Assembly: GCA_964016885.1 (NCBI GenBank)
Contig: CAXHJY010000264.1
Coordinates: forward strand, 310,001 to 374,000
Direction of reading: 5' to 3'
Origin: Eledone cirrhosa
Lineage: Eukaryota
DNA: 64,000 bases
Positions 24,001 to 47,700 of the stretch are shown in pieces; within the stretch, counting starts at the first letter, position 1, and each line of letters begins with the position of its first letter. The translations under genes and the position numbers were made by a program. Under the pieces are notes generated by a model, which saw nothing but the letters and a program-made list of their open reading frames with translations, did no database searches and was not told the origin of the DNA.

Positions 24001-25827
24001 GTGCCACTCTAGATGTGCCACTGGTACAGCCAGCCATTGGCGTGTCACTCTAGATGTGCCACTGGTACAGCCAGTCATTGGGGTGTCACTCTAGATGTGC
24101 CACTGGTACAGCCAGTCATTAGGGTGCCACTCTAGATGTGCCACTGGTACAGCCAGTCATTTGGGTGCCACTGGTACAGCCAGTCATTGGGGTGCCACTC
24201 TAGATGTGCCACTGGTACAGCCAGCCATTGGGGTGTCACTCTAGATGTGCCACTCTAGATGTGCCACTGGTACAGCCAGTCATTGGGGTGTCACTCTAGA
24301 TGTGCCACTGGTACAGCCAGCCATTGGGGTGTCACTCTAGATGTGCCACTGGTACAGCCAGTCATTGGGGTGTCACTCTAGATGTGCCACCGGTACAGCC
24401 AGTCGTTTGGGTGCCACTGGTACAGCCAGTCATTGGGGTGTCACTCTAGATGTGCCACTGGTACAGCCAGTCATTGGGGTGTCACTCTAGATGTGCCACC
24501 GGTACAGCCAGTCATTTGGGTGCCACTGGTACAGCCAGCCATTAGGTACCACTCTAGCTGTGCCACTGGTACAGCCAGTCATTGGGGTGCCACTCTAGAT
24601 GTGCCACTGGTACAGCCAGCCATTGGGGTGTCACTCTAGATGTGCCACTGGTACAGCCAGTCATTAGGGTGCCACTCTAGATGTGCCACTGGTACAGCCA
24701 GTCATTGGGGTGCCACTCTAGATGTGACACTGGTACAGCCAGTCATTGGGGTGCCACTCTAGATGTGCCACTGGTACAGCCAGTCATTGGGGTGCCACTC
24801 TAGATGTGACACTGGTACAGCCAGTCATTGGGGTGCCACTCTAGATGTGCCACTGGTACAGCCAGTCATTGGGGTGCCACTCTAGATGTGACACTGGTAC
24901 AGCCAGTCATTGGGGTGCCACTCTAGATATGACACTGGTACAGCCAGTCATTGGGGTCCCCCTCTAGATGTGACACTGGTACAGCCAGTCATTGGGGTGT
25001 CACTGTAGATGTGCCACTGGTACAGCCAGTCATTAGGGTGCCACTCTAGATGTGCCACTGGTACAGCCAGTCATTGGGGTACCACTCTAGATGTGCCACT
25101 GGTACAGCCAGTCATTAGGGTGCCACTGGTACAGCCAGTCATTGGGGTGCCACTCTAGATGTGAGATTGGTACAGCCAGCCATTGGGGTGCCACTCTAGA
25201 TGTGACACTGGTACAGCCAGTCATTGGGGTGTCACTGTAGATGTGCCACTGGTACAGCCAGCCATTGGGGTGCCACTCTAGATGTGCCACTGGTACAGCC
25301 AGCCATTGGGGTGCCACTCTAGATGTGCCACTGGTACAGCCAGTCGTGGGGTGCCACTCTAGATGTGCCACTGGTACAGCCAGTCATTAGGGTGCCACTG
25401 GTACAGCCAGTCATTGGGGTGCCACTCTAGATGTGAGATTGGTACAGCCAGCCATTGGGGTGCCACTCTAGATGTGCCACTGGTACAGCCAGTCATTGGG
25501 GTACCACTCTAGATGTGCCACTGGTACAGCCAGTCATTAGGGTGCCACTGGTACAGCCAGTCATTGGGGTGCCACTCTAGATGTGAGATTGGTACAGCCA
25601 GCCATTGGGGTGCCACTCTAGATGTGACACTCGTACAGCCAGTCATTGGGGTGTCACTGTAGATGTGCCACTGGTACAGCCAGCCATTGGGGTGCCACTC
25701 TAGATGTGCCACTGGTACAGCCAGCCATTGGGGTGCCACTCTAGATGTGCCACTGGTACAGCCAGTCATTGGGGTGCCACTCTAGATGTGCCACTGGTAC
25801 AGCCAGTCATTAGGGTGCCACTCTAGA
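1..25827. repeat. Satellite A: tandem array, 41-bp monomer (14-bp GTGCCACTCTAGAT + 27-bp GTGCCACTGGTACAGCCAGTCATTGGG); runs off the left edge
   Basis: TAGATGTG recurs at 1 and 42 (period 41). Both sub-units start with GTGCCACT. Frequent 27-bp-only units (e.g. ~483) and rare 14-bp doublings (~784-820). Almost every full monomer has an XbaI site (TCTAGA). Ends abruptly at CTCTAGA 25821-25827. Confidence 0.98.
3520..10040. repeat. ~3247-bp higher-order tandem duplication within satellite A
   Basis: Diagnostic variants recur at a 3247 offset: TTAGGATGTC 3591/6838, GTGCAGCTGG 6311/9558, identical ORFs at 4618/7865. Boundaries approximate. Confidence 0.9.
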
Positions 25828-25933
25828 AGCACTTGTACTCAAATGACTGGATTCTTTGTTCCATGTTTGCTTTGAGAGTCCAACTCTCACAGCCATACAA
25901 AGCAATTGAAGTTACTAAGGACTTATATAATTT
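25826..25933 (-). mobile_element. Short RTE/BovB-like LINE ORF fragment abutting satellite A
   Basis: Manual minus-strand translation gives KLYKSLVTSIALYGCESWTLKANMEQRIQSFEYKCF*, the post-RT motif (LYGCExWT...R.xFE) typical of RTE-clade LINEs. Too short for the ORF track. Confidence 0.8.
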
Positions 25934-26162
25934 GTGAATTTGAAGCAACAGGGCAGAGGATTCTATCATCAAACTTTATATTTACGATTCAAATTAATAT
26001 TTTTCCCTTTTTGCTGAAGTGAAATAAAGATATAAATTCAACCAGAATTGTTATTTGTCGTTTCATCATTTCTTCCACAACAAATAAAACTTCGCTTCAT
26101 ATATAACTATGTATAAATGTATGTGTGTTTACATATGAACAGATGCATGAGTACATATATAT

Positions 26163-28070
26163 ATCATCATCATCATCGTTTAACGTCCATCTTCCACACT
26201 AGCATGGGTTAGATGGTTTTGTTCCATTTGATGCGGAAATGGTTGGGAGACCGTGTTTCGCTCACACGGAAGCATCTCTGGCAGATTTTTTTTACAGCTG
26301 GATGTCCTTCCTAACACCAACCACATTTACAGTGTGGGTCTGGGAGGTTTTTACCGTGTTGCCTACACAACCACCTTACAGTGTGGACTGTTGTGTTATT
26401 GACACAGTGGACGGAACGGGAGAGGGAGGATGGGGTAGGGTGTGGCAGTGGGGTGTACATTGAGTTAAGAGGTGCTTACTGACTGTAGGTTTGTATGTAA
26501 TGGCAGTCCAGTCTTCTGTACAACTGCATGACGCCAAAGATCTCGATCCAGTGACATTGTTTTAGAGAAGTGTAGGTGCGCAGGGTCAGTTTTTATCACC
26601 GCGTCCCAGGTTTTCCTTGGTCTACCCACTCCGCAGCTTCCATCAATTTTCATTGCTCTGCACTTTTTTATACAGCTGCCGTCCATCATACACATCACAT
26701 GTCCATACCAACACAATCTCCTCTCCAGAACACATTTGATACCTCTTATGCTTAGTCTCCCTCTTAGTTCGTTTATGTTTTGCCATCCGCACACATTACT
26801 ATTACACATCCATCAGAGCATGCAAGCTTCATTTCTTTCTAATCTATGCAGGTCTTGAGCACACAACGCCCAAGTCTCACTACCATGTAATATCGCCATT
26901 CATATACACGCATCATACAACCTGCCTTTAACTTTTAGAGAAAAACCTCTTGTGGCTAACAGCAATATTAGCTCTCTGAACGTTTTCCATCCAGTTCTAA
27001 CTCTGGCTACTGTACTTTCAGAGCACCCTCCTCCACTGCTGATTTTGTCACCCAGGTAATGGAAGGTGTCTACTATTTCTGTAGAACCATCTGGGCAGTT
27101 GAAGGAAATATCATCCAGTGGGTCCTAGCTACTTATTGCACCAGAGCACCGGCCACATATAAAATCTATATTCTTAGTTAGCTTACCTGTGATCCCACTA
27201 CATCTTTTATGCACTCATATTTTGCATCTGGGACATAAAATGGAGTTTCTACCTACTCCTTTCTACCTACACTGAGCATGGCCATTTCCCAGAGGGGACC
27301 TGTGCCCTATTCTCCTTTCTACATACTAGAACCTTAGTCTTAGACAAGTTGACTCTAAGGCCTTTTGATTCTAGGCCATGCTTCCATGTTTGGAATTTCC
27401 TCTCTAGTTCAGCCATAGATTCAGCTATGAGAGTTAGATGATCTGCGTATAGAAGTTCCCATGGGCAGCCGGTCTTGAACTCCTCTGTTATAGCCTGAAG
27501 GGTAATAATGAACGGGAGCATAAGAACGGAGCCCTGGTGAATCCCTACCATTACGCTAAAATCACTATATTCTTCGTTAATTCTAACCTTGCTGACTGTT
27601 CCTCTATACATAGCTTGTATAACTCTCACAAGCCATTTATCTACACCTAGTTTTCTAAGAGCCCACCAGATTAAGGAGCGGGGTGGGCTCTGTCAAAGGC
27701 CTTCTCCAGGTCAACAAAAGCTAAGTAGAGGGGTTTACTGTTAGCCAGGTACTTCTCCTGCAATTGCCGTACAAGGAAAAGAGCATTTGTGGTACTTGTA
27801 CCTGACATAAACCCAAACTGCATTTCATCTAGATCAATTTGGTCTCTGATCAGTAGAGTAATAACTCTTCCTGTGACTTTCATGACTTGGTCAACTAATT
27901 TAATGCCTCTATAGTTTTCTCTATCCAGGGCGTCTCCTTTGCCCTTGAAACAGTTGATAATGATGCTGCTACGCCAGTCATTTGGTATGACCCCCATTCT
28001 GTATTACTTGGTTTACTATCCGGGTGACCATAGTGTGTCCCACCATTCCAGATGCTTTCAACATTTCATC
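26163..28070 (-). mobile_element. 5'-truncated, decayed RTE-clade LINE (RT + C-terminus + 3'UTR + (GAT)n tail)
   Basis: Frameshifted ORF pieces: 27671-27997 (PNDWRSS..KGKGD..NYRGIKL..QFGFM..AFVDLEKAFDR), 27267-27629 (HQGSVL..LLYADHL, i.e. YADD mutated) and 26465-26809 (RRLCWYGHV..GRPRKTW). (CAT)n at ~26164-26177 on + is the tail. Confidence 0.93.
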
Positions 28071-28074
28071 TTCC

Positions 28075-29150
28075 TACTGAATGATGTAATTTTGATGAAG
28101 CATACTCCTCTAGACCATAGCTCATAACACAAGAGGAACTCCATGACCTTGTCAGGGATCTACAACTACTTAAGAATAAGGCAGAGCTGCTGACCGTCAG
28201 CAGCAGGTCAGCAATTTCTTCATAATGGGAGGTGATTTATTGTCCTGCAACAATATGGTCTGATGGAAGCACTTGATATTGAATACGAACCCAGTCACTG
28301 GAGTCTGTTCATAGATTCATAACTTCCCATGGGCTACACATCACATATGAAAGAAACTTGTGAGAATATAAAGCATATGTTGCAATGAATAGGATGAACA
28401 TCAATGGCAGTTCCGTGGTGACTTAAAGGTTGTTGGTCTTGTGATGGGTTTGCACTCCCAAAGATTGATAGAGAGGAAGAGAGAATATGAGATAGAGGAT
28501 GAATCAACCCAAGTGCATTACTGGTACTTTATTTTATCAACCTCAAATGGATGAAAGACAAAGTTGAACTTCAGCAGGATTTGAACTCAGAAGTCAGCAG
28601 AAAGAACCAGAAGCAATACCACAAGGTATTCTATCTGTTGTGAATGGGAGAGCCATGCAGGAGGTTCCCATTATGGCCACCTCATCAATCACTGGAACCT
28701 AAATGTTGCTACCACCACTACACATAAATCTGGGGCTCATGAAAAACTTTGTAAAAGCTGTGGACAAATCTGACATGGGATATAACAATCAAAATTCCCC
28801 TCACTGATGCTAAGATAAAAGAGGGAGTCTTCATTGGTCCTCAGATTTGAGAGCTTCTTAAAGATGGTGACTTTAAATCAGCCCTTCATAGGAGAAAGTT
28901 GCTTGGAAAGCATTCAAGTTAGTGGCGAAGGGATTTCTCGGAACCAGAAGGGAAGGAAACTATGAAGAATTGGTGGAAAACCTCATGAAGGCTTACAAGA
29001 ATATGGGATGTAACAAGGTTTTAAGAATCAAATAAAACAATATCAAAAAGCATACAATGTTAAAGCAAGCTATTGGTTTCATAAGTTATGCAAAAGGAAT
29101 TTAAAAAAAACCATGTTTACCTGTGATTTTTAAGTTGTTAGATTGCAGTG
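28075..29150 (+). mobile_element. Decayed Chapaev3-like (CMC superfamily) DNA transposase remnant
   Basis: Manual translation across frameshifts: LITQEELHDLVRDLQLLKNKAELL (from 28121), LMEALDIEYEPSHWSLFIDS, HMKETCENIKHML, WQFRGDLKVVGLVMGL, CEWESHA, LLPPLHINLGLMKNFVKAVDK, DAKIKEGVFIGPQI, AWKAFKLVAKGFLG..NYEELVENLMKAYKNMGCN. These follow the motif order I recall for Chapaev3 transposases. Possible CAGTG terminus at 29146-29150 is uncertain. Confidence 0.8.
28498..28637 (-). mobile_element. tRNA-derived SINE remnant with Meta-like central domain, nested in the Chapaev remnant
   Basis: Minus strand has B-box GAGTTCAAATCC followed by CTTTCATCCATTTGAGGTTGATAAAATAAAGTACCAG (MetaSINE-like by recall). 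It interrupts the transposase between GDLKVVGLVMGL and CEWESHA. Confidence 0.7.
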
Positions 29151-29334
29151 AATGGGTTAATGTATGGTTTATTTATCTGGAGTTTTGCTATCGCTTGTCC
29201 TTATATAGGTAGGATGATGTTTGTTAATTCAGGTGTAAGACGTGTGTACAAAGCATTTGGCAGGTATATATAGGTAGTTAGAATAATATAAGAAATTATA
29301 TAAAAAAATACTAAAAGATATTGTATTTATAGCG

Positions 29335-29526
29335 AAATATATATGCATAGCAAATGTAGATATATTACATGTATATATGTGTATGTACACACACAGGTGG
29401 GCCACTTTTATATATAAATGGGTATGTGTGTGTATGAATATACACATGTAAGTGAGCCCATATAAAAGTGAGAACATGGGCAAATGAAGGGTATATGTAT
29501 ATATATGTATCTATCTAACTCTCTCT
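29335..29526. repeat. Degenerate (TA)/(TG)/(CA)/(TC) microsatellite-rich tract
   Basis: Low-complexity dinucleotide runs ending in CTCTCTCT immediately before the Tx1-like LINE. Confidence 0.75.
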
Positions 29527-32500
29527 AGAACCTGGATGTCAAAGTACAGCAAGTACACTTGGACCCGGGGGGGGGGTAGACTGGTAGTCCTAGACGTTAA
29601 CAGTATTGGAGGTGGAGCCTTCAGACTGGTGGCCGTTTATGCCCCGACCGGGCAATTGCAATCACGGCCAGACTTCTTTAAGCGTCTCGAGTCTTTTCTG
29701 GGAACATTTCGCTCCTTACTTTTAGTTGGGGACTGGAATGGTATCCTAGATGCACGATGGGACTATGTGGGAGCATGTCCCAGTAGAGCGGGGTGCAACA
29801 GCCTCAAAACTTTAATGGCCAATTCCAACTGGCCGATAGGTATCAACTGGATTTCCCGACTGCACCACAGTAGACGTGGGCAAACCGCAGTGGGACATCT
29901 AGATCGTATTTAGATAGGTTCTTCATTAGAAAAAGAGACAAGGAAATGTTAAGCAGTCCACGAATGCACATGGTTGCCTATTCAGATCACAAGTTAGTCG
30001 TCTGCTTAGTCAACCGTGATAGAACACATAGACAGGGACTCGGATACTGGAAGCTGAACGTGTCATTGCCGGCACGTAAAGCTTACAGTGAACGGATAAG
30101 TAGATTAGTCAAGCAACAGTTAATGGGAGCCATCGTCAACAATAGATGGTGGTACTCTCTCAAGAAAGCAATTGGAATAGAATCGATAGGGTATAGCAGA
30201 GAGTTAGCCTTAGAGAAAAACAAAATAGAAAGAGAACTAGTAGCCAAGGTAGAGGAGGTACTTAGAAGTGGCAACGCGGCTAGAGTGTTAGCGTCGAGAA
30301 CGGCACTGGACCAGTTCTTCGATGCGAAACACGAAGGCTGTGTGGTCAGAAGCAAAACACGTGCTCTAGGAAGCGAAGGAGCGAAAGCTGTCAGCTGGGC
30401 CCGAGTGGCGGAGGCGAAAAGTGGCAACAAGTCCACGATTCGGTCTTTGAAAGACCAAAACAGACGCATGCTACTTGACCTAAGCAAATGTGCACGGCCT
30501 TTCAGCGGCACTTTGCGTGACTGTTTGAGCAGATAGACGGTGAGCCGAACGGGGTAATAAACTTTAGTTCATACCTCGACGGCCTGCCGCATTTCTCGAA
30601 CACTGAGATACGGGACGCTCTGGGCCGCTGCGGGAAACGCAAGTCACCCAGTCTAGATGGTCTACCCTACGAGTTTTACATAGGCATGCCGGCCTTGTTC
30701 TCTGGCATCCTCGAAGCCATCTACTGCAATTGGCAGCAGAACGGGAGAATTCCCAGTTCTGCAGGCAAGGGCGTAGTAACGCTGATCAGGAAAGACGAGA
30801 ACAAGGGGGACGAAATTAACAACTTCAGGCCCATAACTCTGCTCAACACAGAGTTAAAGATTTTGGCCAAGGTGCTAGCGACGAGGTTGGCGCTTGTCGT
30901 CGAGAACCTGGTAGGGAAAGCGCAAACGTGTGCAATCCCGACCAGGTCCATACACGACAATCTCCACCTCATGTGATACATCATAGAGAGGGTAGGTAGT
31001 AAACCCGGCTTTGGTGGGGCTCTGATCAACTTGGATCAGTCTAAGGCATTCGATAGGGTTGACCATCGATACTTGGAAGCGGTTCTCAAGGCGGCCGGTT
31101 TCGGTCCCGTGTTCAGAGGCTGGATCGAGGCGATGCACACCAGCAACTACTTGAGGGTCAAGGTCAACAGCTAGTTATCGGAGCCGTTCGCAATCACGCG
31201 TTCCATTCGACAAGGGTGCCCTCTCTCCTCCATTCTGTATGTATTGACTCTAGAGCCATTACTGCGGAAATTTGAGCTGTTGCAGGGCATCCCTCTAGAA
31301 CCGGGACTGCGCAAAGTGGCGTCGGCTTATGCCAACGACGTGACGGTAATGGTGTCGAGTACCTCGGAAATCGGGGTGATCGGCAACTTACTGAAAGAAA
31401 CGCTGACGGGAGCAAAACTAAACCCAGACAAGTCTGTCGGTTTGCAACTCGGTACGTGGAGAGGCAAACCGATGACGTCCGACAGCGTCATTGGACGCTG
31501 GACGGACGGACCGGTGAAATTGCTTGGGGTCTGGTTCGGTTCAGACCTCCAAGTGGAGAAAAACTGGAACGAGGTTACGGCCAAGGTGTTTGCACTCACC
31601 CAGAAGTGGGCAGAGTGCAAACTGTCCTTGAAAGGTTGAGCGGAGGTGGCGAACACTTTCATAGCGTCCGTCATCTACTACCGCTTGACTGTCGTGCCTT
31701 GTCCCCGTGAACACCTCGCCAAGATGGAACGCATGCTCTTCCAGTTTCTGTAGAAGAAGCAGGCTCCGTTAGTGAGGAGATCCGTCTGCTGTCAGCACCT
31801 TTCCAATGGAGGGCTGGGAATGCCGTGGCTGATGATGCGCAAACATGCGCTGAGGCTGCGGCATCTCCAGGTATTCCTCACTGACCCCCAACCGGTGTGG
31901 GCACCGTTTGTGAGACAGGCTTTCCCACAGCTCGTTTCGCTGACGGAGCTGCAGTCCTGGGTCAAGAAAAGACTGAAAACGATGGGTGCCTGGCACATTG
32001 AATGCGCTCAGGCGCTCACAGTCCTCTGGCAAGCGGGCGCAGCAATCAGTGGAGACTCCACTTCTACATTCTATAGAGGGATTGTACGTTACGAGGGTGA
32101 CGACGTGCTCGGAGAGACTCTGGGCGTCGAAGACGATGAGCTCACCAGTCTGTTTGGTAGGACTTTCCGCCCGGGACCTATGGACAACTTCCAGAGGTCC
32201 CTGGCCTGGCAGTTCTACCGAGGAGCTCTACCGGTTCGTGACAAGATCTACAGGCATGGATGCCCCGGCAGGAATCCTTCAAAGAGGGCGTGTCCAAGAT
32301 GCGCGCAGGACATTGAAACAGTCCTGCACGCAATTGTACACTGCCTGGGCGTAACCGACCTGTGGAACTATGCAGAACAACTGCTGTCGCGTATGGGACA
32401 AATCCAGTTGACTGCCGAGTCCATAGTAAGGATCAAACCGCCAGCCTCTTTCAAAAACGAAAGAGAGGCGGTTTTCCTCTGTACGGTGGCTATGGTGAAA

Positions 32501-32707
32501 GAAGTTATAGGGTGGACAAGGTTGAGAGGACTGAGGACAGATGCCTTTCTCTCCGGACAACAATTGATTCCCTTCTTTAAGTATCACTTTAGAAGGAGAA
32601 TCAGGGTGGAGAGAGAGGCACTGCACCCCAGTAAATTTACTGAATGGTGGGTGAATGAAGCGAAAATGGCCCGAGTGATTGGGCCTTCTCTGTTTATAAG
32701 CCTGTAG
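29527..32707 (+). pseudogene. Disrupted ORF2 of L1/Tx1 LINE: AP endonuclease - reverse transcriptase - CCHC zinc knuckle
   Basis: APE motifs RLVAVYAP, LVGDWN, SDHKLV, then GYWKLN. RT motifs FRPITLLNTELKILAKVLATRL, DQSKAFDRVDH, RQGCPLS, SAYAND (YADD mutated), LLGVWF. Then GGLGMP and CPRCAQDIETVLHAIVHC. In-frame stops near 30974, 31172, 31637 and 31751, plus frameshifts including the G-run at 29567-29576. Confidence 0.92.
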
Positions 32708-32931
32708 GTTGAAGAAGAGAGCAAAAGGAAGAAAGGAGCACTTGCAGAACACGTTCCTGGAGTTGAGGGTTGTTCTATCGACGGGGTATTAAACAACACA
32801 TTTGTAACGCCTCCCCCCTATTTGGGATTTCGATTGTTGTAATTGTTTGTTTTTATATTTTTTACACGACTGTATGTAAAATCCCCGGCATGTCTTTGTA
32901 TTGTCCCCTTTTCTTGTGCGCTCTTGTGGCT

Positions 32932-32937
32932 AATAAA
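32932..32937 (+). promoter_or_regulatory. Polyadenylation signal of the L1/Tx1 element
   Basis: AATAAA ~225 bp after the ORF2 stop, right at the return to microsatellite flank. Confidence 0.65.
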
Positions 32938-32989
32938 GAAATATATCTATTTCTCTCTCACTCTCTTTCTCTATATATATGCATATAGT

Positions 32990-33160
32990 GCCAAGTCCAC
33001 ACTGTAAATGTGGTTGGCGGTAGAAAGGCCACTCAAAAGTAGAAAGCAAGCCAATATCTGCCCCGGGTGAGCTAAACATGATTCCCTGACCTGTTTCTCT
33101 CCTTAAGGGTCAATCCGTCCTACCCATGAAGCAGGACGTTAAACGACGAGGATGATGATA
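32990..33160 (+). mobile_element. Diverged solo RTE-type 3' tail
   Basis: CACACTGTAAATGTGGTTGG...ACCCATG...GGACGTTAAACGACGAGGATGATGAT is homologous to the reverse complement of 26163-26340. Confidence 0.75.
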
Positions 33161-33217
33161 TATATGTGGCTATATATATGATGTGTGTATGTGTATGTAT
33201 GATATGTGTATATATAT

Positions 33218-33360
33218 GGAGGCACATGGTTTAGTGGTTAGAGCATTGGCCTTGCAATCGAAAGGTTGTGAGTTCAATTCTCAGACCGGATGATGTGTTG
33301 TTTCCTTGAGCAAGACACTTTATTTCACATTGCTCCAGTTTACTCAGCTGTAGAAATGAG
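33218..33360 (+). mobile_element. tRNA-derived CORE-like SINE head (Pol III A and B boxes)
   Basis: A-box TGGTTTAGTGG (33227-33237), B-box GAGTTCAATTC (33270-33280), then GTGTTGTTTCCTTGAGCAAGACACTTTA resembling the CORE domain. Confidence 0.8.
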
Positions 33361-33384
33361 ATGATGGGGACTGGGGTCCATATC

Positions 33385-33630
33385 ATTCCACTCTAAAGTG
33401 GTCGTGGAGGTGCCACGGCAAAAAAGCACCAGCACTCACTGTAAATGAGGTTGGTGTTAGGAAGGGCATCCAGCTGTAGAAAACCAGCCAGACACAGTTC
33501 CTATATGAACAAGACACGGTCACCCGACCCAACTTGCCTCTAAATGGGACAAACCTGTCTAACCCATGCTAGCGTGAAAGATAGACGTTAAAACAATGAG
33601 GACGATGATGATGATGATGATGATGATGAT
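33385..33630 (+). mobile_element. RTE-type 3' tail with (GAT)n, directly following the SINE head
   Basis: GGTTGGTGTTAGGAAGGGCATCCAGCTGTAGAAA...TCTAACCCATGCTAGCGTGAAAGATAGACGTTAAA followed by about nine GAT repeats. Confidence 0.8.
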
Positions 33631-33664
33631 ATATATATATATACACACACACACGCACATATAT

Positions 33665-34478
33665 GACATAAGTTTTCCTCTTAAATTGAAGGGAAGACTA
33701 TATAATGGATGTCTACATACAGCAATGTTACATGGTAGTGAGACCTGGACACTGCGCGCAGACCTGATAAGATAGGAAAGAAATGAAGCCTGCATCCCCT
33801 GATGGATGTGTAATAGTAATATACATGAAGAGCAAAGCATAAATGAACTGAGAGAGAAATTGGGCATAAGAGGGATCAGATGCAGTATACTAGAGAGGAG
33901 ATTGTGTTGGTATGGACATGTGATCTGTTTGTAGGATGACAGCTGTATAAAAAGGTGCAGGGCAATCAATGTTGACAGAAGCTATGGAGTAGGAAGACCC
34001 AGGAAGACCTGGGATGAGGTGGTAAAAGCTGACCTTGCACAATTGCACCTCTCAAAGACAATGACACAGGAGCGAGATCTTTAGCGTTATGCAGTAATAC
34101 AGAAGACACGCCTTCCCATGTGCACGGACTCAAACATACATCTTGTAGGCACTTCTTAACCACTATACCCCCTTCCATACTCCACCCACACCCATTTCTG
34201 TTCACACCACCCTTACACTGTAAAGTGGTCATGTAGGTGTCACAACAAAAAGTATCGAGCACACACTATAAAGTGGCCGGGTAGCTGTCATGATAAAAAA
34301 CATCCAGCACGCACTATAACTGTGGTTGGCATTTTGAAGGACATGCGACTGTAGAAATCTAGCCAGAAACAGTTCTGTATGAGCAGGACACGGTCACCTG
34401 ACGCAACTTACCTCAGATGGGGCAACCAGTCTAACCCATGCTAGCATGGAAAGTGGATGTTAAACGATGATGGTGATG
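33665..34478 (+). mobile_element. 5'-truncated RTE LINE 3' fragment, same family as 26163-28070 but opposite orientation
   Basis: Plus-strand translation KLKGRLYNGCLHTAMLHGSETWTL..ERNEA..WMCNSN..INELREKLGIRGIRCSILERRLCWYGHV matches the 26465-26809 peptide. The 3'UTR ends TAAACGATGATGGTGATG. Confidence 0.88.
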
Positions 34479-34894
34479 TGTGTGTGTGTGTGTGTGCATG
34501 TGTGTAAGGAAGAAGAAATATAAAAAATACTGAAAGATATTGTATATATAGAGAAATATATATATATAGGTTGAGTAGATAATTACCGTTTTTTTTCTAA
34601 TCTGGTTTGGAAATTAAAATTAAATATTTCATTCTTTCTAGGAGGTATGGAATTGTATTTATTGTTCAAATTTCATCAACATTTTTGACATTTTTTAAAT
34701 ATTGGATTTTAAATGCTCTGCTACCTGAACTGCCCTGAACAGGATATTTAAACAGTTGATAATGTCCACTCTGTAATCCTGAAGAAGTGAGGACTGTAAT
34801 GGGCACTGAGCTTCTCTCATCTTACCAAAGAAAAACAGTGAAGTACTACACAATAATCACATATTTTATTTATTCACACATACACACATATATA

Positions 34895-35283
34895 TCATCA
34901 TCATTTTATGTCTGCTTTTCCCTGCTTGCAAGAGTGGGACAGGTCCTATTCAGCACAGCATCTCTCCACCTGTCATGGTCCTTCATCATCTCCAGCGATC
35001 TGAGGTCTGCTCTCACCACCTCTGCCCTTGTTTTTCGTGATCTTCCTCTCGGGGATTTCTTGGCACTTCTTTACCCAGCAGTCATCCTTCATGTGCATCA
35101 CATGTCCATACCACGCAGTCTTCTCTCCCACACACTACAACTTATCCCTCTTATATAGTTTCTCTCTCAACTCAAATATGCTTGGTCATTCACGCACATT
35201 GACATTGCACATCCATCGGAGCATGCTTGCTTCATTTCTCTCCAACCATTGCAAATCCTCTGCAGTTGCAGTTCATGTCTCAC

Positions 35284-35286
<3 letters not shown>
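34895..35286 (-). mobile_element. Short RTE LINE 3' fragment (related subfamily, short 3'UTR)
   Basis: Minus-strand translation SET*TATAEDLQWLERNEASMLRWMCNVNVRE, later WYGHV. (CAT)n on + at ~34895-34904 is the tail. Confidence 0.8.

Positions 35287-35343
<57 letters not shown>
35287..35343. repeat. (GA)n microsatellite followed by a G run
   Basis: About 23 perfect GA repeats then poly-G. On the minus strand this is a (C)n(CT)n tract starting ~25 nt downstream of the exon donor. Confidence 0.95.
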
Positions 35344-35361
35344 AGCAAGGAATTTAAATGT

Positions 35362-35367
35362 TCTTAC
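35362..35367 (-). promoter_or_regulatory. 5' splice donor
   Basis: GAG|GTAAGA, near consensus. Confidence 0.8.
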
Positions 35368-35438
35368 CTCAGCAGTATGATCAATCATTAATGTCAAATG
35401 AATTTCATTAGCAATATCATAATGACCTTTCTCAAGAG
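35368..35438 (-). CDS. SRA1: Internal coding exon (71 bp, phase 1 to 0) of a probable SRA1/SRAP orthologue, C-terminal SRA1/Sec31 domain
   Basis: Minus strand: TTTTTTTTTTTACTTTGCAG | CTCTTGAG...ACTGCTGAG | GTAAGA. Open frame (A)LEKGHYDIANEIHLTLMIDHTAE aligns with human SRAP [24 protein letters not shown] (recalled from memory). The ORF track piece 35167..35397 captures TLMIDHTAE. Confidence 0.8.
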
Positions 35439-35460
35439 CTGCAAAGTAAAAAAAAAAACC
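35439..35460 (-). promoter_or_regulatory. 3' splice acceptor with polypyrimidine tract
   Basis: Minus strand poly-T followed by ACTTTGCAG immediately before the exon. Confidence 0.8.
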
Positions 35461-35524
35461 ACAAAACTATTATTATTACTATGAGAATTAGTTAAGAGAA
35501 TTTGATGTTAAATAGTCATGAAGA

Positions 35525-35660
35525 TACCATTGGATAGGCTTCCAAGAATCTCTGTCTAACTAATTTAAAGAACAAGGAGTGGGTTGACAGAAGGCTACGG
35601 TAGAAGACATTTGACTAGTCCAGAAATTGAACACTGCAGAGTTAACAAGTAAACCGTTTG
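35525..35660 (-). mobile_element. Highly decayed SINE remnant (octopus CORE-type, by recall)
   Basis: GGCTTCCA..TCTGTCTAACTAATTT..AACAAGG..GGCTACGGTAGAAGACATTTG..ATTGAAC resembles the antisense of a common octopus tRNA-SINE as I remember it. Heavily deleted. Confidence 0.45.
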
Positions 35661-35738
35661 GGTGAGCTGGGTCAAGGTTCAACATATATAGGACAGTTAA
35701 TCCATTAACTAGATCTCATCTGACATGAATAATGACTC

Positions 35739-38700
35739 TAGATATACTGTCTAAAGGAACTATAGAACATGGTAGATGTCAACAGTGTGATATCTAACAT
35801 GGTAGATGTCAACAGAGTGATATTTAGCATGGTAGATATACCATCTAAAGGAACTATAGAACAGTGTGATATCTAACATGGTAGATGTCAACAGAGTGAT
35901 ATCAAACATAGTAGATATACTGTCTCAAGGAACTATACAACATGGTACAGGTCAACAGTGTGATATCTAACATGGTAGATATATATCTAAAGGTACTATA
36001 GAACATGGTACATGTCAACAGTGTGATATCTAATATGGTAGATGTCAACAGAGAGATATCTAACAAGGTACATATACTGTCTAAAGGTACTATAAAACAT
36101 GGTAGATGTCAACAGTGTGATATCTAACATGGTAGATATACTGTCTAAAGGTACTATAGAACATGGTAGATGTCAACAGTGTGATATCTAACATGGTAGA
36201 TATACTGTCTAAAGGTACTATAGAACATGGTAGATGTCAACAGTGTGATATCTAACATGGTAGTTATACTGTCTAAAGGAACTATAGAACATGGTACATG
36301 TCAACAGTGTGATATCTAACATGGTAGATGTCAACAGTGTGATATCTAACATGGTAGATGTCAACAGTGTGATATCTAACATGGTAGATGTCAACAGTGT
36401 GATATCTACCATGGTAGATGTCAACAGAGAGATATCTAACATGGTACATATACTGTCTAAAGGAACTATAGAACATGGTACACGTCATCAGTGTGATATC
36501 TACCATGGTAGATGTCAACAGAGAGATATCTAACATGGTACATATACTGTCTAAAGGAACTATAGAACATGGTACATGTCAACAGTGTGATATCTAACAT
36601 GGTAGATGTCAACAGTGTGATATCTAACATGGTAGATATACTGTCTAAAGGTACTATAGAACATGGTAGATGTCAACAGTGTGATATCTAACATGGTATA
36701 TATACTGTCTAAAGGTACCATAGAACATGGTACATGTCAACAGTGTGATATCTAACATGGTAGATATACTGTCTAAAGGAACTATAGAACATGGTACATG
36801 TCAACAGTGTGATATCTAACATGGTACATGTCAACAGTGTGATATCTAAAATGGTAGATATACTGTCTAAAGCAATTATAGAACATGGACATGTCAACAG
36901 TGTGATATCTAACATGGTAGATATACTGTCTAAAGGTACTATAGAACATGGTAGATGTCAACAGTGTGATATCTAACATGCTAGATGTCAACAGTGTGAT
37001 ATCTAACATGGTAGATATACTGTCTAAAGGAACTATAGAACATGGTTGATGTCACAGTGTGATATCTAACATGGTAGATGTCAACAATGTGATATCTAAC
37101 ATGGTAAATATACTGTCTAAAGGAACTATAGAACATGGTACATGTCAACATTGTGATATCAAACATGGTAGATATACTGTCTAAAGGAACTATAGAACAT
37201 GGTAGATGTCAACAGTGTGATATCTAACGTGGCAAATATACTGTCTAAAGGAACTATAGAACATGGTACATGTCAACAGTGTGATATCTAACATGGTAGA
37301 TGTCAACCGTGTGATATCTAACATGGTAGATATACTGTCTAAAGGAACTATAGAACATGGTACCAGTCAACAGTGTGATATCTAACATGGTAGATATACT
37401 GTCTAAAGGAACTATAGAACATGGTAGATGTCAACAGGGTGATATCTAACATGGTAGGTGTCAACAGTGTGATATCTAACATTGTAGATATACTGTCTAA
37501 AGGAACTATAGAACATGGTAGATGTCAACAGTGTGATATATAGCATGGTAGATATACTGTCTAAAGGTACTATAGAACATGGTACATGTCAACAGTGTGA
37601 TATCTAACATGGTAGATGTCAACAGTGTGATATCTAACATGGTAGATATACTGTCTAAAGGAACTATAGAACATGGTACATGTCAACAGTGTGATATCTA
37701 ACATGGTAAATATACTGTCTAAAGGAACTATAGAACATGGTAGGTGTCAACAGGGTGATATCTAACATGGTAGATATACTGTCTAAAGGAACTATAGAAC
37801 ATGGTAGGTGTCAACAGGGTGATATCTAACATGGTAGATATACTGACTAAAGGTACTATAGAACATGGTAGATGTGAACAGTGTGATATCTAACATGGTA
37901 GATATATTGTCTAAAGCACTCTAGAACATGGTACAGGTCAACAGTCTGATATCTAACATGGTAGATATACTGTCTAATGGTACTATAGAACATGGTAGAT
38001 GCAACACTGAGATATCTAACATGGTAGACATAGTGTGTAAATGTACTATAGAACATGGTAGGTGTCAACAGGGTGATATCTAACATGGTAGATATACAGT
38101 CTAAAGGTACTATAGAACTTGGTACATGTCAACAGTGTGATATATAACATAGTAGATATACTGTCTAAAGGAACTATAGAACATGGTACATGTCAACAGT
38201 GTGATATCTAACATGGTAAATGTACTGTATAAAGGTACTATAGAACATGGTACATGTCAACACTGTGATATCTAACATGGTAGATATACTGTCTAAAGGA
38301 ACTATTGAACATGGTAGATGTCAACAGTGTGATATTTAACATGGTAGATGTCAACAGTGTGATATCTAACATGGTAGATATACTGTCTAAAGGAACTATA
38401 GAACATGGTACATGTCAACAGTGTGTTTTATAACATAGTAGATATACTGTCTAAAGCACTCTAGAACATGGTACAGGTCAACAGTGTGATATCTAACATG
38501 GTAGATATACTGTCTAAAGGCACTATAGAACATGGTACAGGTCAACAGTGTGATATCTAACATGGTAGATATACTGTCTAAAGGTACTATAGCACATGGT
38601 AGATGCAACAGTGAGATATCTAACATGGTAAATATACAGTCTAAAGGAACTATAGAACATGGTAGGTGTCAACAGGGTGATATCTAACATGGTAGATATA

Positions 38701-41700
38701 CTGTCTAAAGGAACTATAGAACATGGTAGGTGTCAACAGGGTGATATCTAACATGGTAGATATACTGTCTAAAGGAACTATAGAACATGGTAGGTGTCAA
38801 CAGGGTGATATCTAACATGGTAGATATACTGTCTGAAGGAACTATAGAACATGGTACATGTCAACAGTGTGATATCTAACATGGTAGATATACTGACTAA
38901 AGGTACTATAGAACATGGTAGATGTGAACAGTGTGATATCTAAGATGGTAGATATATTGTCTAAAGCACTCTAGAACATGGTACAGGTCAACAGTCTGAT
39001 ATCTAACATGGTAGATATACTGTCTAATGGTACTATAGAACATGGTAGATGCAACACTGAGATATCTAACATGGTAGACATAGTGTGTAAATGTACTATA
39101 GAACATGGTAGGTGTCAACAGGGTGATATCTAACATGGTAGATATACAGTCTAAAGGTACTATAGAACTTGGTACATGTCAACAGTGTGATATATAACAT
39201 AGTAGATATACTGTCTAAAGGAACTATAGAACATGGTACAGGTCAACAGTGTGATATCTAACATGGTAAATGTACTGTCTAAAGGTACTATAGAACATGG
39301 TACATGTCAACACTGTGATATCTAACATGGTAGATATACTGTCTAAAGGAACTATTGAACATGGTAGATGTCAACAGTGTGATATTTAACATGGTAGATG
39401 TCAACAGTGTGATATCTAACATGGTAGATATACTGTCTAAAGGAACTATAGAACATGGTACATGTCAACAGTGTGATATATAACATAGTAGATATACTGT
39501 CTAAAGCACTCTAGAACATGGTACAGGTCAACAGTGTGATATCTAACATGGTAGATATACTGTCTAAAGGCACTATAGAACATGGTACAGGTCAACAGTG
39601 TGATATCTAACATGGTAGATATACTGTCTAGAGGTACTATAGAACATGGTAGGTGTCAACAGTGTGATATCTAACATGGTAGATATACTGTCTAAAGGAA
39701 CTATAGAACATGGTACACGTCATCAGTGTGATATCTAACATGGTAGATATACTGTCTAAAGGTACTATAGAACATGGTACATGTCAACAGTGTGATATCT
39801 AACATGGTAGATATACTGTCTAAAGGAACTATAGAACATGGTACATGTCAACAGTGTGATATCTAAAATGGTAGATATACTGTCTAAAGGAACTATAGAA
39901 CATGGTAGATGTCAACAGGGTGATATCTAACAAGGTAGGTGTCAACAGTGTGATATCTAACATGGTAGATATACTGTCTAAAGGAACTATAGAACATGGT
40001 AGATGTCATCAGTGTGATATCTAAAATGCTAGATATACTGTCTAAAGGTACTATAGAACATGGTACATGTCAACAGTGTGATATATAGCATGGTAGATAT
40101 ACTGTCTAAAGGTACTATAGAACATGGTACATGTCAACAGTGTGATATCTAACATGGTAGATGTCAACAGTGTGATATCTAACATGGTAGATATACTGTC
40201 TAAAGGAACTATAGAACATGGTACATGTCAACAGTGTGATATCTAACATGGTAGATATACTGTCTAAAGGAACTATAGAACATGGTAGGTGTCAACAGGG
40301 TGACATCTAACATGGTAGATATACCGTCTAAAGGTACTATAGAACATGGTAGATGTCAACAGGGTGATATCTAACATGGTAGGTGTCAACAGTGTGATAT
40401 CTAACATGGTAGATATACCGTCTAAAGGTACTATAGAACATGGTAGGTGTCAACAGGGTGATATCTAACATGGTAGGTGTCAACACTGTGATATCTAACA
40501 TGGTAAATATACTGTCTAAAGGAACTATAGAACATGGTACATGTCAACAGTGTGATATCAAACATGGTAGATATACTGTCTAAAGGTACTATAGAACATG
40601 GTAGATGTCAACAGTGTGATATCTAACATGGTAGATGTCAACAGTGTGATATCTAACATGGTAGATATATTGTCTAAAGCACTCTAGAACATGGTACAGG
40701 TCAACAGTGTGATATCTAACATGGTAGATATACTGTCTAAAGGTACTATAGAACATGGTAGATGTCAACAGTGTGATATCTAACATGCTAGATGTCAACA
40801 GTGTGATATCTAACATGGTAGATATACTGTCTAAAGGAACTATAGAACATGGTTGATGTCACAGTGTGATATCTAACATGGTAGATGTCAACAGTGTGAT
40901 ATCTAACATGGTAGATGTCAACAATGTGATATCTAACATGGTAAATATACTGTCTAAAGGAACTATAGAACATGGTACATGTCAACATTGTGATATCAAA
41001 CATGGTAGATATACTGTCTAAAGGAACTATAGAACATGGTAGATGTCAACAGTGTGATATCTAACGTGGCAAATATACTGTCTAAAGGTACTATAGAACA
41101 TGGTACATGTCAACAGTGTGATATCTAACATGGTAGATGTCAACCGTGTGATATCTAACATGGTAGATATACTGTCTAAAGGAACTATAGAACATGGTAC
41201 ACGTCAACAGTGTGATATCTAACATGGTAGATATACTGTCTAAAGGAACTATAGAACATGGTAGATGTCAACAGGGTGATATCTAACATTGTAGGTGTCA
41301 ACAGTGTGATATCTAACATGGTAGATATACTGTCTAAAGGAACTATAGAACATGGTAGATGTCAACAGTGTGATATATAGCATGGTAGATATACTGTCTA
41401 AAGGTACTATAGAACATGGTACATGTCAACAGTGTGATATCTAACATGGTAAATATACTGTCTAAAGGAACTATAGAACATGGTAGGTGTCAACAGGGTG
41501 ATATCTAACATGGTAGATATACTGTCTAAAGGAACTATAGAACATGGTAGGTGTCAACAGGGTGATATCTAACATGGTAGATATACTGTCTAAAGGAACT
41601 ATAGAACATGGTACATGTCAACAGTGTGATATCTAACATGGTAGATATACTGACTAAAGGTACTATAGAACATGGTAGATGTGAACAGTGTGATATCTAA

Positions 41701-44700
41701 GATGGTAGATATATTGTCTAAAGCACTCTAGAACATGGTACAGGTCAACAGTCTGATATCTAACATGGTAGATATACTGTCTAATGGTACTATAGAACAT
41801 GGTAGATGCAACACTGAGATATCTAACATGGTAGACATAGTGTGTAAATGTACTATAGAACATGGTAGGTGTCAACAGGGTGATATCTAACATGGTAGAT
41901 ATACAGTCTAAAGGTACTATAGAACTTGGTACATGTCAACAGTGTGATATATAACATAGTAGATATACTGTCTAAAGGAACTATAGAACATGGTACATGT
42001 CAACAGTGTGATATCTAACATGGTAAATGTACTGTATAAAGGTACTATAGAACATGGTACATGTCAACACTGTGATATCTAACATGGTAGATATACTGTC
42101 TAAAGGAACTATTGAACATGGTAGATGTCAACAGTGTGATATTTAACATGGTAGATGTCAACAGTGTGATATCTAACATGGTAGATATACTGTCTAAAGG
42201 AACTATAGAACATGGTACATGTCAACAGTGTGTTATATAACATAGTAGATATACTGTCTAAAGCACTCTAGAACATGGTACAGGTCAACAGTGTGATATC
42301 TAACATGGTAGATATACTGTCTAAAGGCACTATAGAACATGGTACAGGTCAACAGTGTGATATCTAACATGGTAGATATACTGTCTAAAGGTACTATAGC
42401 ACATGGTAGATGCAACAGTGAGATATCTAACATGGTAAATATACAGTCTAAAGGTACTATAGAACTTGGTACATGTCAACAGTGTGATATATAACATAGT
42501 AGATATACTGTCTAAAGGAACTATAGAACATGGTACATGTCAACAGTGTGATATCTAACATGGTAAATGTACTGTCTAAAGGTACTATAGAACATGGTAC
42601 ATGTCAACACTGTGATATCTAACATGGTAGATATACTGTCTAAAGGAACTATTGAACATGGTAGATGCCAACAGTGTGATATTTAACATGGTAGATGTCA
42701 ACAGTGTGATATCTAACATGGTAGATATACTGTCTAAAGGAACTATAGAACATGGTACATGTCAACAGTGTGATATATAACATAGTAGATATACTGTCTA
42801 AAGCACTCTAGAACATGGTACAGGTCAACAGTGTGATATCTAACATGGTAGATATACTGTCTAAAGGCACTATAGAACATGGTACAGGTCAACAGTGTGA
42901 TATCTAACATGGTAGATATACTGTCTAAAGGTACTATAGAACATGGTAGGTGTCAACAGTGTGATATCTAACATGGTAGATATACTGTCTAAAGGTACTA
43001 TAGAACATGGTACATGTCAACAGTGTGATATCTAACATGGTAGATATACTGTCTAAAGGAACTATAGAACATGGTACATGTCAACAGTGTGATATCTAAA
43101 ATGGTAGATATACTGTCTAAAGGAACTATAGAACATGGTAGATGTCAACAGGGTGATATCTAACAAGGTAGGTGTCAACAGTGTGATATCTAACATGGTA
43201 GATATACTGTCTAAAGGAACTATAGAACATGGTAGATGTCATCAGTGTGATATCTAAAATGCTAGATATACTGTCTAAAGGTACTATAGAACATGGTACA
43301 TGTCAACAGTGTGATATATAGCATGGTAGATATACTGTCTAAAGGTACTATAGAACATGGTACATGTCAACAGTGTGATATCTAACATGGTAGATGTCAA
43401 CAGTGTGATATCTAACATGGTAGATATACTGTCTAAAGGAACTATAGAACATGGTACATGTCAACAGTGTGATATCTAACATGGTAGATATACTGTCTAA
43501 AGGAACTATAGAACATGGTAGGTGTCAACAGGGTGACATCTAACATGGTAGATATACCGTCTAAAGGTACTATAGAACATGGTAGATGTCAACAGGGTGA
43601 TATCTAACATGGTAGGTGTCAACAGTGTGATATCTAACATGGTAGATATACCGTCTAAAGGTACTATAGAACATGGTAGGTGTCAACAGGGTGATATCTA
43701 ACATGGTAGGTGTCAACACTGTGATATCTAACATGGTAAATATACTGTCTAAAGGAACTATAGAACATGGTACATGTCAACAGTGTGATATCAAACATGG
43801 TAGATATACTGTCTAAAGGTACTATAGAACATGGTAGATGTCAACAGTGTGATATCTAACATGGTAGATATACTGTCTAAAGGAACTATTGAACATGGTA
43901 GATGTCAACAGTGTGATATTTAACATGGTAGATGTCAACAGTGTGATATCTAACATGGTAGATATACTGTCTAAAGGAACTATAGAACATGGTACATGTC
44001 AACAGTGTGATATATAACATAGTAGATATACTGTCTAAAGCACTCTAGAACATGGTACAGGTCAACAGTGTGATATCTAACATGGTAGATATACTGTCTA
44101 AAGGCACTATAGAACATGGTACAGGTCAACAGTGTGATATCTAACATGGTAGATATACTGTCTAGAGGTACTATAGAACATGGTAGGTGTCAACAGTGTG
44201 ATATCTAACATGGTAGATATACTGTCTAAAGGAACTATAGAACATGGTACACGTCATCAGTGTGATATCTAACATGGTAGATATACTGTCTAAAGGTACT
44301 ATAGAACATGGTACATGTCAACAGTGTGATATCTAACATGGTAGATATACTGTCTAAAGGAACTATAGAACATGGTACATGTCAACAGTGTGATATCTAA
44401 AATGGTAGATATACTGTCTAAAGGAACTATAGAACATGGTAGATGTCAACAGGGTGATATCTAACAAGGTAGGTGTCAACAGTGTGATATCTAACATGGT
44501 AGATATACTGTCTAAAGGAACTATAGAACATGGTAGATGTCATCAGTGTGATATCTAAAATGCTAGATATACTGTCTAAAGGTACTATAGAACATGGTAC
44601 ATGTCAACAGTGTGATATATAGCATGGTAGATATACTGTCTAAAGGTACTATAGAACATGGTACATGTCAACAGTGTGATATCTAACATGGTAGATGTCA

Positions 44701-47700
44701 ACAGTGTGATATCTAACATGGTAGATATACTGTCTAAAGGAACTATAGAACATGGTACATGTCAACAGTGTGATATCTAACATGGTAGATATACTGTCTA
44801 AAGGAACTATAGAACATGGTAGGTGTCAACAGGGTGACATCTAACATGGTAGATATACCGTCTAAAGGTACTATAGAACATGGTAGATGTCAACAGGGTG
44901 ATATCTAACATGGTAGGTGTCAACAGTGTGATATCTAACATGGTAGATATACCGTCTAAAGGTACTATAGAACATGGTAGGTGTCAACAGGGTGATATCT
45001 AACATGGTAGGTGTCAACACTGTGATATCTAACATGGTAAATATACTGTCTAAAGGAACTATAGAACATGGTACATGTCAACAGTGTGATATCAAACATG
45101 GTAGATATACTGTCTAAAGGTACTATAGAACATGGTAGATGTCAACAGTGTGATATCTAACATGGTAGATGTCAACAGTGTGATATCTAACATGGTAGAT
45201 ATATTGTCTAAAGCACTCTAGAACATGGTACAGGTCAACAGTGTGATATCTAACATGGTAGATATACTGTCTAAAGGTACTATAGAACATGGTAGATGTC
45301 AACAGTGTGATATCTAACATGCTAGATGTCAACAGTGTGATATCTAACATGGTAGATATACTGTCTAAAGGAACTATAGAACATGGTTGATGTCACAGTG
45401 TGATATCTAACATGGTAGATGTCAACAGTGTGATATCTAACATGGTAGATGTCAACAATGTGATATCTAACATGGTAAATATACTGTCTAAAGGAACTAT
45501 AGAACATGGTACATGTCAACATTGTGATATCAAACATGGTAGATATACTGTCTAAAGGAACTATAGAACATGGTAGATGTCAACAGTGTGATATCTAACG
45601 TGGCAAATATACTGTCTAAAGGTACTATAGAACATGGTACATGTCAACAGTGTGATATCTAACATGGTAGATGTCAACCGTGTGATATCTAACATGGTAG
45701 ATATACTGTCTAAAGGAACTATAGAACATGGTACACGTCAACAGTGTGATATCTAACATGGTAGATATACTGTCTAAAGGAACTATAGAACATGGTAGAT
45801 GTCAACAGGGTGATATCTAACATTGTAGGTGTCAACAGTGTGATATCTAACATGGTAGATATACTGTCTAAAGGAACTATAGAACATGGTAGATGTCAAC
45901 AGTGTGATATATAGCATGGTAGATATACTGTCTAAAGGTACTATAGAACATGGTACATGTCAACAGTGTGATATCTAACATGGTAAATATACTGTCTAAA
46001 GGAACTATAGAACATGGTAGGTGTCAACAGGGTGATATCTAACATGGTAGATATACTGTCTAAAGGAACTATAGAACATGGTAGGTGTCAACAGGGTGAT
46101 ATCTAACATGGTAGATATACTGTCTAAAGGAACTATAGAACATGGTACATGTCAACAGTGTGATATCTAACATGGTAGATATACTGACTAAAGGTACTAT
46201 AGAACATGGTAGATGTGAACAGTGTGATATCTAAGATGGTAGATATATTGTCTAAAGCACTCTAGAACATGGTACAGGTCAACAGTCTGATATCTAACAT
46301 GGTAGATATACTGTCTAATGGTACTATAGAACATGGTAGATGCAACACTGAGATATCTAACATGGTAGACATAGTGTGTAAATGTACTATAGAACATGGT
46401 AGGTGTCAACAGGGTGATATCTAACATGGTAGATATACAGTCTAAAGGTACTATAGAACTTGGTACATGTCAACAGTGTGATATATAACATAGTAGATAT
46501 ACTGTCTAAAGGAACTATAGAACATGGTACATGTCAACAGTGTGATATCTAACATGGTAAATGTACTGTATAAAGGTACTATAGAACATGGTACATGTCA
46601 ACACTGTGATATCTAACATGGTAGATATACTGTCTAAAGGAACTATTGAACATGGTAGATGTCAACAGTGTGATATTTAACATGGTAGATGTCAACAGTG
46701 TGATATCTAACATGGTAGATATACTGTCTAAAGGAACTATAGAACATGGTACATGTCAACAGTGTGTTATATAACATAGTAGATATACTGTCTAAAGCAC
46801 TCTAGAACATGGTACAGGTCAACAGTGTGATATCTAACATGGTAGATATACTGTCTAAAGGCACTATAGAACATGGTACAGGTCAACAGTGTGATATCTA
46901 ACATGGTAGATATACTGTCTAAAGGTACTATAGCACATGGTAGATGCAACAGTGAGATATCTAACATGGTAAATATACAGTCTAAAGGTACTATAGAACT
47001 TGGTACATGTCAACAGTGTGATATATAACATAGTAGATATACTGTCTAAAGGAACTATAGAACATGGTACATGTCAACAGTGTGATATCTAACATGGTAA
47101 ATGTACTGTCTAAAGGTACTATAGAACATGGTACATGTCAACACTGTGATATCTAACATGGTAGATATACTGTCTAAAGGAACTATTGAACATGGTAGAT
47201 GCCAACAGTGTGATATTTAACATGGTAGATGTCAACAGTGTGATATCTAACATGGTAGATATACTGTCTAAAGGAACTATAGAACATGGTACATGTCAAC
47301 AGTGTGATATATAACATAGTAGATATACTGTCTAAAGCACTCTAGAACATGGTACAGGTCAACAGTGTGATATCTAACATGGTAGATATACTGTCTAAAG
47401 GCACTATAGAACATGGTACAGGTCAACAGTGTGATATCTAACATGGTAGATATACTGTCTAAAGGTACTATAGAACATGGTAGGTGTCAACAGTGTGATA
47501 TCTAACATGGTAGATATACTGTCTAAAGGTACTATAGAACATGGTACATGTCAACAGTGTGATATCTAACATGGTAGATATACTGTCTAAAGGAACTATA
47601 GAACATGGTACATGTCAACAGTGTGATATCTAAAATGGTAGATATACTGTCTAAAGGAACTATAGAACATGGTAGATGTCAACAGGGTGATATCTAACAA

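Follow-up and report, generated by a model that had tools for sequence, protein, structure and literature searches.

The finding of a single 71-bp exon between two large and different satellite arrays raised the question of whether a conserved gene could run through such DNA, and how its introns came to be filled with satellites. The exon lies in a stretch of 64,000 nucleotides from Eledone cirrhosa, hereafter the window, which corresponds to positions 310001-374000 of contig C291. The whole of this unplaced, 663,931-bp contig was included in the analysis.

Identity of the 71-bp exon

The segment at window positions 35368..35438 (contig 345368-345438, minus strand) contained one open frame, translated as (A)LEKGHYDIANEIHLTLMIDHTAE. 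It was preceded by a T-rich acceptor ending in TTTGCAG (poly-T tract and CAG, 35439..35463, minus strand; end of intron 4) and followed by a GTAAG donor (35358..35367, minus strand; start of intron 5), so the exon described in an earlier sequence-only reading of this DNA was confirmed, together with its acceptor, donor and open frame. The distance of 300 bp to satellite B given there was also correct, as the array begins at 35738, 300 bp off the acceptor. The same reading had noted a likeness to SRA1, which was upheld when the peptide was compared with protein databases. SRA1 was the sole Pfam family matched (E 4e-5; 23.8 bits versus a cut-off of 23.3), and the three PDB matches obtained at E<=10 were all SRA1 (E 0.05-0.09). 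Two proteins among the four candidates of the protein search, the SRA1 sequences of Argonauta hians and Octopus sinensis, were 100% identical to the peptide over the exon, and the SRA1 protein P0002 matched PF07304 with 91.8 bits. Consistently, tblastn placed the segment as coding exon 5 of SRA1. The gene itself is an ordinary SRA1 (SRAP, steroid receptor RNA activator protein, PF07304), and only its architecture is unusual. Mammalian SRA is active as a non-coding RNA as well. Weak PF07304 matches on contigs C7 and C2 were discarded as repeats or noise, and an Rfam scan of window positions 25000-37000 matched nothing.

Layout of SRA1 on the contig

The tblastn analysis and a genome-wide search recovered coding exons 2-6 of SRA1 on a single contig, on the same minus strand and in protein order. 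In addition to exon 5, they comprised exon 2 (contig 593541-593708), exon 3 (589294-589595), exon 4 (381704-381812) and exon 6 (278478-278732), each identified by tblastn and splice sites; the numbering counts an unlocated exon encoding MAAMKP as exon 1. All the junctions were GT-AG, and the joined frame remained open for 300 codons before a stop. The product of exons 2-6 was 80-81% identical to SRA1 of Octopus sinensis (237/296) and Argonauta hians (189/232). The exon in the window had been called lone, which holds within the window but not on the contig, where exons 2, 3, 4 and 6 lie past its two edges. The check for an intact SRA1 elsewhere did not reveal a second locus in the genome search, as five of the six matches were the known exons and the sixth had an E value of 4.3.

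The span of exons 2-6 was 315,231 bp, and introns 2, 3, 4 and 5 measured 3,945, 207,481, 36,265 and 66,635 bp, respectively. The minimum sizes previously proposed for the introns flanking exon 5 (more than 28.5 kb upstream and more than 35 kb downstream) were therefore both exceeded. Exon 1, which in P0001 and P0002 supplies the first five to six codons, had no fitting candidate within 70 kb on the upstream side of exon 2, and the genome-wide pattern search gave no exact match. The sole match with one mismatch, on C3, was dropped because it had no donor. Since exon 1 turned up neither in these 70 kb nor in the genome search, the complete gene probably exceeds 385 kb and is broken by the contig end. 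This end (C291:615000-663931) contained blocks duplicated at a spacing of 12-14 kb as well as long AT microsatellites, which are a likely cause of the break before exon 1.

Satellite arrays within the introns

In the assembly, the coding exons of SRA1 extend across 315 kb, as three successive introns each hold a different tandem array. Tandem arrays accounted for 276,117 of the 315,231 bp (88%), with a tandem repeat share of 94% in intron 3 (207 kb), 98% in intron 4 (36 kb) and 67% in intron 5 (67 kb). The satellite filling that had been suggested for both introns flanking exon 5 was thus found, and intron 3 added a third and larger example outside the window.

Satellite A occupies window positions 1..25827 and continues leftward to contig position 290,927, reaching 44.9 kb in total within intron 5. 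It is built of 41/27-bp units with 54% GC, and its end lies 9.5 kb from exon 5. For this family, 235 candidate places were counted across many chromosomes, and 38 of the places were scored. When five other satellite A loci were probed 10 kb away, none of the ten probes was still satellite A, which implies that those arrays are shorter than about 20 kb. The non-array part of intron 5 (25828..35367) combined microsatellites and short interspersed repeats with decayed LINE pieces that gave RVT_1 matches on both strands. Two decayed non-LTR retrotransposons with RVT_1 and zf-RVT matches were visible there, at window positions 29490-32707 (plus strand) and about 26600-28060 (minus strand).

Satellite B fills window positions 35738..64000 and extends rightward to contig position 381,346 (35.6 kb), with units of about 30/33 bp arranged in higher-order repeats of 4.5-6 kb and a GC content of 35%. 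It appeared private to intron 4, as all 82 genomic matches of an exact 30-mer, obtained in a pattern search, fell inside this intron. Without the array, intron 4 would measure 678 bp.

Satellite C, which lies in intron 3 outside the window (contig 392892-587307, 194 kb), has a 90-bp LINE-derived unit. Its left flank and first unit together formed one alignment (245/298 identities, 82%) with a copy of a dispersed repeat located in the window, and in translation the unit resembled a LINE reading frame in its 3' part. We take the LINE piece in question to be LINE/RTE. As the flank and the first unit form a continuous LINE copy, the array appears to have arisen and grown inside that element, and satellite C would represent a satellite caught at birth. 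The array contained 24 interruptions, mostly copies of one 645-bp piece at 97-99% identity, and the repetition of this piece within the array points to amplification in kb-sized blocks. The piece, together with two longer forms of 2.2 kb, comes from a different LINE-like element and occurs about 23 times at contig 402620-517804. An exact 112-mer of satellite C had 34 matches, 30 in the intron 3 array and four on two other contigs. The unplaced contig C955 carried the same satellite C variant, as did the unplaced contig C1504, where it lay at 319 kb and at 564 kb and where satellite A was present as well.

None of the satellites was exon-derived: when the five exons were searched against the contig with blastn at E<=0.01, they matched only themselves. 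The longest exact repeats in the arrays were 4.0, 4.6 and 7.1 kb. Unique 100-mers made up 7-17% of the arrays and were up to 14 kb apart in satellite C; inverted blocks were absent from the arrays. The long exact repeats suggest that the arrays are young, or that they were partly made by the assembly.

Splicing, transcription and strand signals

Of the 24 listed sequencing runs, four were compared with the exon region. The contigs of three of them (X12, X17 and X21, from organisms A, B and E and three studies, with the RNA type guessed) covered only positions 35364-35439, with one to two differences, apart from short, low-identity repeat matches. By eye, the loose ends of these contigs agreed with the 3' end of exon 4 in 28-29 of 30 letters and with the 5' end of exon 6 in 28 of 30. 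Since the loose ends match these exons, relatives have the exon 4-5-6 junctions, and the check for junctions was answered by spliced contigs of three organisms other than Eledone cirrhosa. The DNA run X23 covered a 426-bp stretch around the exon without a single difference; the assembly itself may derive from this run.

As SRA1 is intact and single-copy, we infer that transcription proceeds through the arrays in Eledone cirrhosa, where it is predicted to cross all three. Transcription elongation runs at 1-4 kb per minute, and at this rate the SRA1 transcript would need 1.5-5 hours.

Motifs resembling splice sites or AATAAA reached a density of at least two per kb in none of five sense array strands and in four of five antisense strands, with 12 of 42 background array strands at this level. 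The five arrays were those in or upstream of the mapped SRA1 exons; the fifth can be included only if exon 1 is located on its far side. The counts give a weak hint of a sense-strand filter against splice and poly(A) signals; the bias was not significant, because the motifs were crude and the arrays numbered five.

Controls and genomic setting

The intron sizes of SRA1 were compared with those of nine chaperonin and seven MCM genes (exon matches 65/70 and 30/32, respectively; seven single-match rows were left out). The 16 control genes contained 79 gaps with a median of 1.1 kb and a maximum of 17.9 kb, none of them above 18 kb. The control genes were all on placed chromosomes, and SRA1 had been chosen for its extremeness; for the latter reason the Fisher p value of 4e-5 for SRA1 versus controls was set aside.

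The background was sampled with 96 systematically placed 3-kb tiles, which were counted as tandem when at least 80% of the tile was tandem repeat. On the four largest chromosomes 1 of 35 tiles qualified, compared with 7 of 44 on the remaining chromosomes and 3 of 17 on unplaced contigs. The mean tandem cover of the sampled tiles was 0.40 on C5-C28 versus 0.13 on C1-C4. On C291, 147 of 221 tiles were tandem by the same threshold, including 85/104 inside the gene and 58/92 (63%) downstream of it. Around the five other satellite A loci, nine of 20 probes landed in other tandem arrays. The tile and probe counts indicate that satellite expansion is regional and not specific to SRA1. Thus, SRA1 is an outlier among genes, yet it lies within a satellite patchwork that recurs in the genome and continues past the gene end.

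Four further distinct arrays were seen on C291, at 19122-56791, 85789-153996, 199597-260538 and 601731-612031. They consisted of 23-bp, 24/50-bp, GTGTA and 30-bp units and measured 38, 68, 61 and 10 kb, respectively. A repeat-masked scan of the contig for splice sites and open frames, judged by eye, recovered only SRA1 exons 2-5, and no further gene was recognised by it in the 278 kb downstream of SRA1. The satellite patchwork offers a reason why conserved genes land on unplaced contigs in cephalopod assemblies.

Origin of the giant introns

The explanation that we consider probable is that of an intact, single SRA1 in which the arrays grew in place and are transcribed and spliced as ordinary, if costly, introns, with the satellites themselves being passive. 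The arrays probably grew in place owing to a proneness of the locus to tandem amplification. A short unit would first be duplicated locally, in the case of satellite C within a LINE copy and in that of satellite B within an intron of about 0.7 kb, while the unit of satellite A would come in from a dispersed family. Unequal exchange or rolling-circle steps could then multiply blocks of kb size. Selection would purge only those expansions that hit exons or equip the sense strand with splice or poly(A) signals. The exons, 71-302 bp in size, would be found by exon definition, and the arrays would have no dedicated regulatory role. The evidence for growth in place comprises the LINE-copy flank of satellite C, the co-amplified 645-bp pieces, the intron 4-private 30-mer of satellite B and the 678-bp remainder of intron 4. 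The three unrelated origins of the arrays argue against one conserved functional sequence. The passive model accounts for the extremeness of SRA1, in view of the control gaps all lying below 18 kb, only by its location.

We assign a low probability to the first alternative, in which SRA1 is genuine but its arrays were inflated or mis-joined during assembly, so that the true introns are much smaller. The unplaced status of the contig would fit such an error, as would a tandem block of 4.7 kb at 99.8% identity in satellite B and the 7.1-kb exact repeat in satellite C; moreover, the comparison with the DNA run covers 426 bp around exon 5, and that run is perhaps the source of the assembly. However, the contig contains no N across its 663,931 bp, and five exons keep the correct order and strand across three arrays. 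The arrays are also varied inside and free of inverted blocks, and their exact repeats (4.0-7.1 kb) are below the length of typical long reads.

The giant introns might instead have been recruited to act as a timer or RNA scaffold that delays or gates SRA1 output with the help of dedicated RNA-binding proteins, as in the Drosophila Y-loop genes. Three consecutive introns are affected, the predicted transcript would contain 276 kb of satellite, the control genes have small introns, and the available text of PMC6508621 provides a precedent. This alternative is nevertheless rather improbable, since arrays are nearly as common just beyond the gene, look young and have three unrelated origins. In addition, the Drosophila autosomal giant genes are less sensitive to splicing defects than the Y-linked ones, according to the accessible part of PMC11207136. 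A function of the SRA1 intron arrays is unsupported.

Introns that are very long for this genome might also be handled by trans-splicing of separate transcripts or by piecewise recursive splicing. The colinear exons on one strand and a simple YAG|GT scan, which was empty in introns 2-5 and gave three matches in repeats upstream of exon 2, make this very improbable. That exon 5 is an orphaned duplicate or belongs to a pseudogene, as the failure to find exon 1 might suggest, was rejected and has hardly any probability left, given the open frame across exons 2-6, their canonical splice sites, the presence of the remaining exons on the contig and a genome without a second locus.

Comparison with known systems

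SRA1 of Eledone cirrhosa shares with its SRA1/SRAP orthologues the PF07304 domain, 80-81% sequence identity and the exon 4-5-6 junctions found in the spliced contigs of relatives. Its introns 3-5 are far over the genome norm and mostly satellite, as in satellite intron gigantism in general. In O. vulgaris, the available text of PMC10700109 gives a median gene length of 20,288 bp and a median intron of 2,467 bp, versus a span of at least 315 kb for SRA1 of Eledone cirrhosa. The word 'satellite' occurred 0 times in the accessible text of the coleoid genome papers PMC10700109 and PMC13652810. The literature searched held no report of satellite-filled introns in any cephalopod; subscription journals lay outside it, and supplements might tabulate intron sizes. 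The SRA1 architecture is thus an extreme case of a known phenomenon, apparently unreported in cephalopods within that literature.

The sequence-only reading had drawn a parallel with Drosophila Y fertility genes. As described in the accessible part of PMC6508621, the Y-loop genes kl-3 and kl-5 are Y-linked and spermatocyte-specific, have megabase introns of simple satellite and require Blanks and Heph. The parallel held for the layout, with small conserved exons amid satellite-filled giant introns, but failed for size and repeat type, as the largest SRA1 intron (0.21 Mb) is about ten times smaller and the SRA1 arrays have complex units of 30-90 bp. Repeat-filled giant introns and gaps in the assembly are also known from the Drosophila autosomal genes Pzl, Myo81F and Mitf, which are non-Y genes; they differ from SRA1 in being insect genes and in being larger, comparable to Y genes (PMC11207136, available text).

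The SRA1 locus seems to work more like the 'sequence stuttering' of avian dot chromosomes than like the Y-loop genes. In the chicken, each intron carries its own locally expanded motif of tens of bases and the exons are left intact; the expansions also affect intergenic DNA, and the regions that hold the genes are hard to assemble (bioRxiv 10.1101/2025.09.16.676548, as far as its text was available). The avian exon-stuttering spans reported in the same text are 112-23,555 bp long and GC-rich, lack interspersed repeats and derive in some cases from exons. The SRA1 arrays, unlike these, measure 36-194 kb (about ten times larger), have 35-54% GC and higher-order repeats, are mixed with LINEs, and none is exon-derived. 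Intron-private repeats of the avian type were found for satellite B and, by origin, for satellite C (4 of 34 matches of the 112-mer elsewhere) but not for satellite A, which occurs on many chromosomes.

A broader reading, which we regard as doubtful, would have octopod genomes contain 'nursery' zones in which private satellites are born in introns and swell to hundreds of kb in single-copy genes, are filtered by strand alone, and burden somatic cells with pre-mRNAs of 300-400 kb of almost pure satellite. If true, this would amount to a Y-loop-scale burden outside the germline and to a cephalopod counterpart of avian stuttering, ten times larger.

Satellite-filled giant introns have been studied mostly in Drosophila germline genes. 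SRA1, with its three arrays and sequenced octopus orthologues, offers a test of special machinery versus mere tolerance. The locus likewise allows a test of how fast arrays grow and of whether sense-strand signals decide which satellites persist.

Two minor observations were made on repeats and gene copies elsewhere in the genome. A 65-bp tandem repeat in intron 3 (contig 385764-387324) resembled a 120-bp tandem array on C15 as well as dispersed single copies, and the segment shared by the two arrays may have become tandem more than once. Intronless MCM-like and chaperonin-like frames were present at C15:1713724-1714392 and C1:292685475-292686407, respectively, beside the intron-containing members of these families, and are possibly retrocopies or more distant paralogues.
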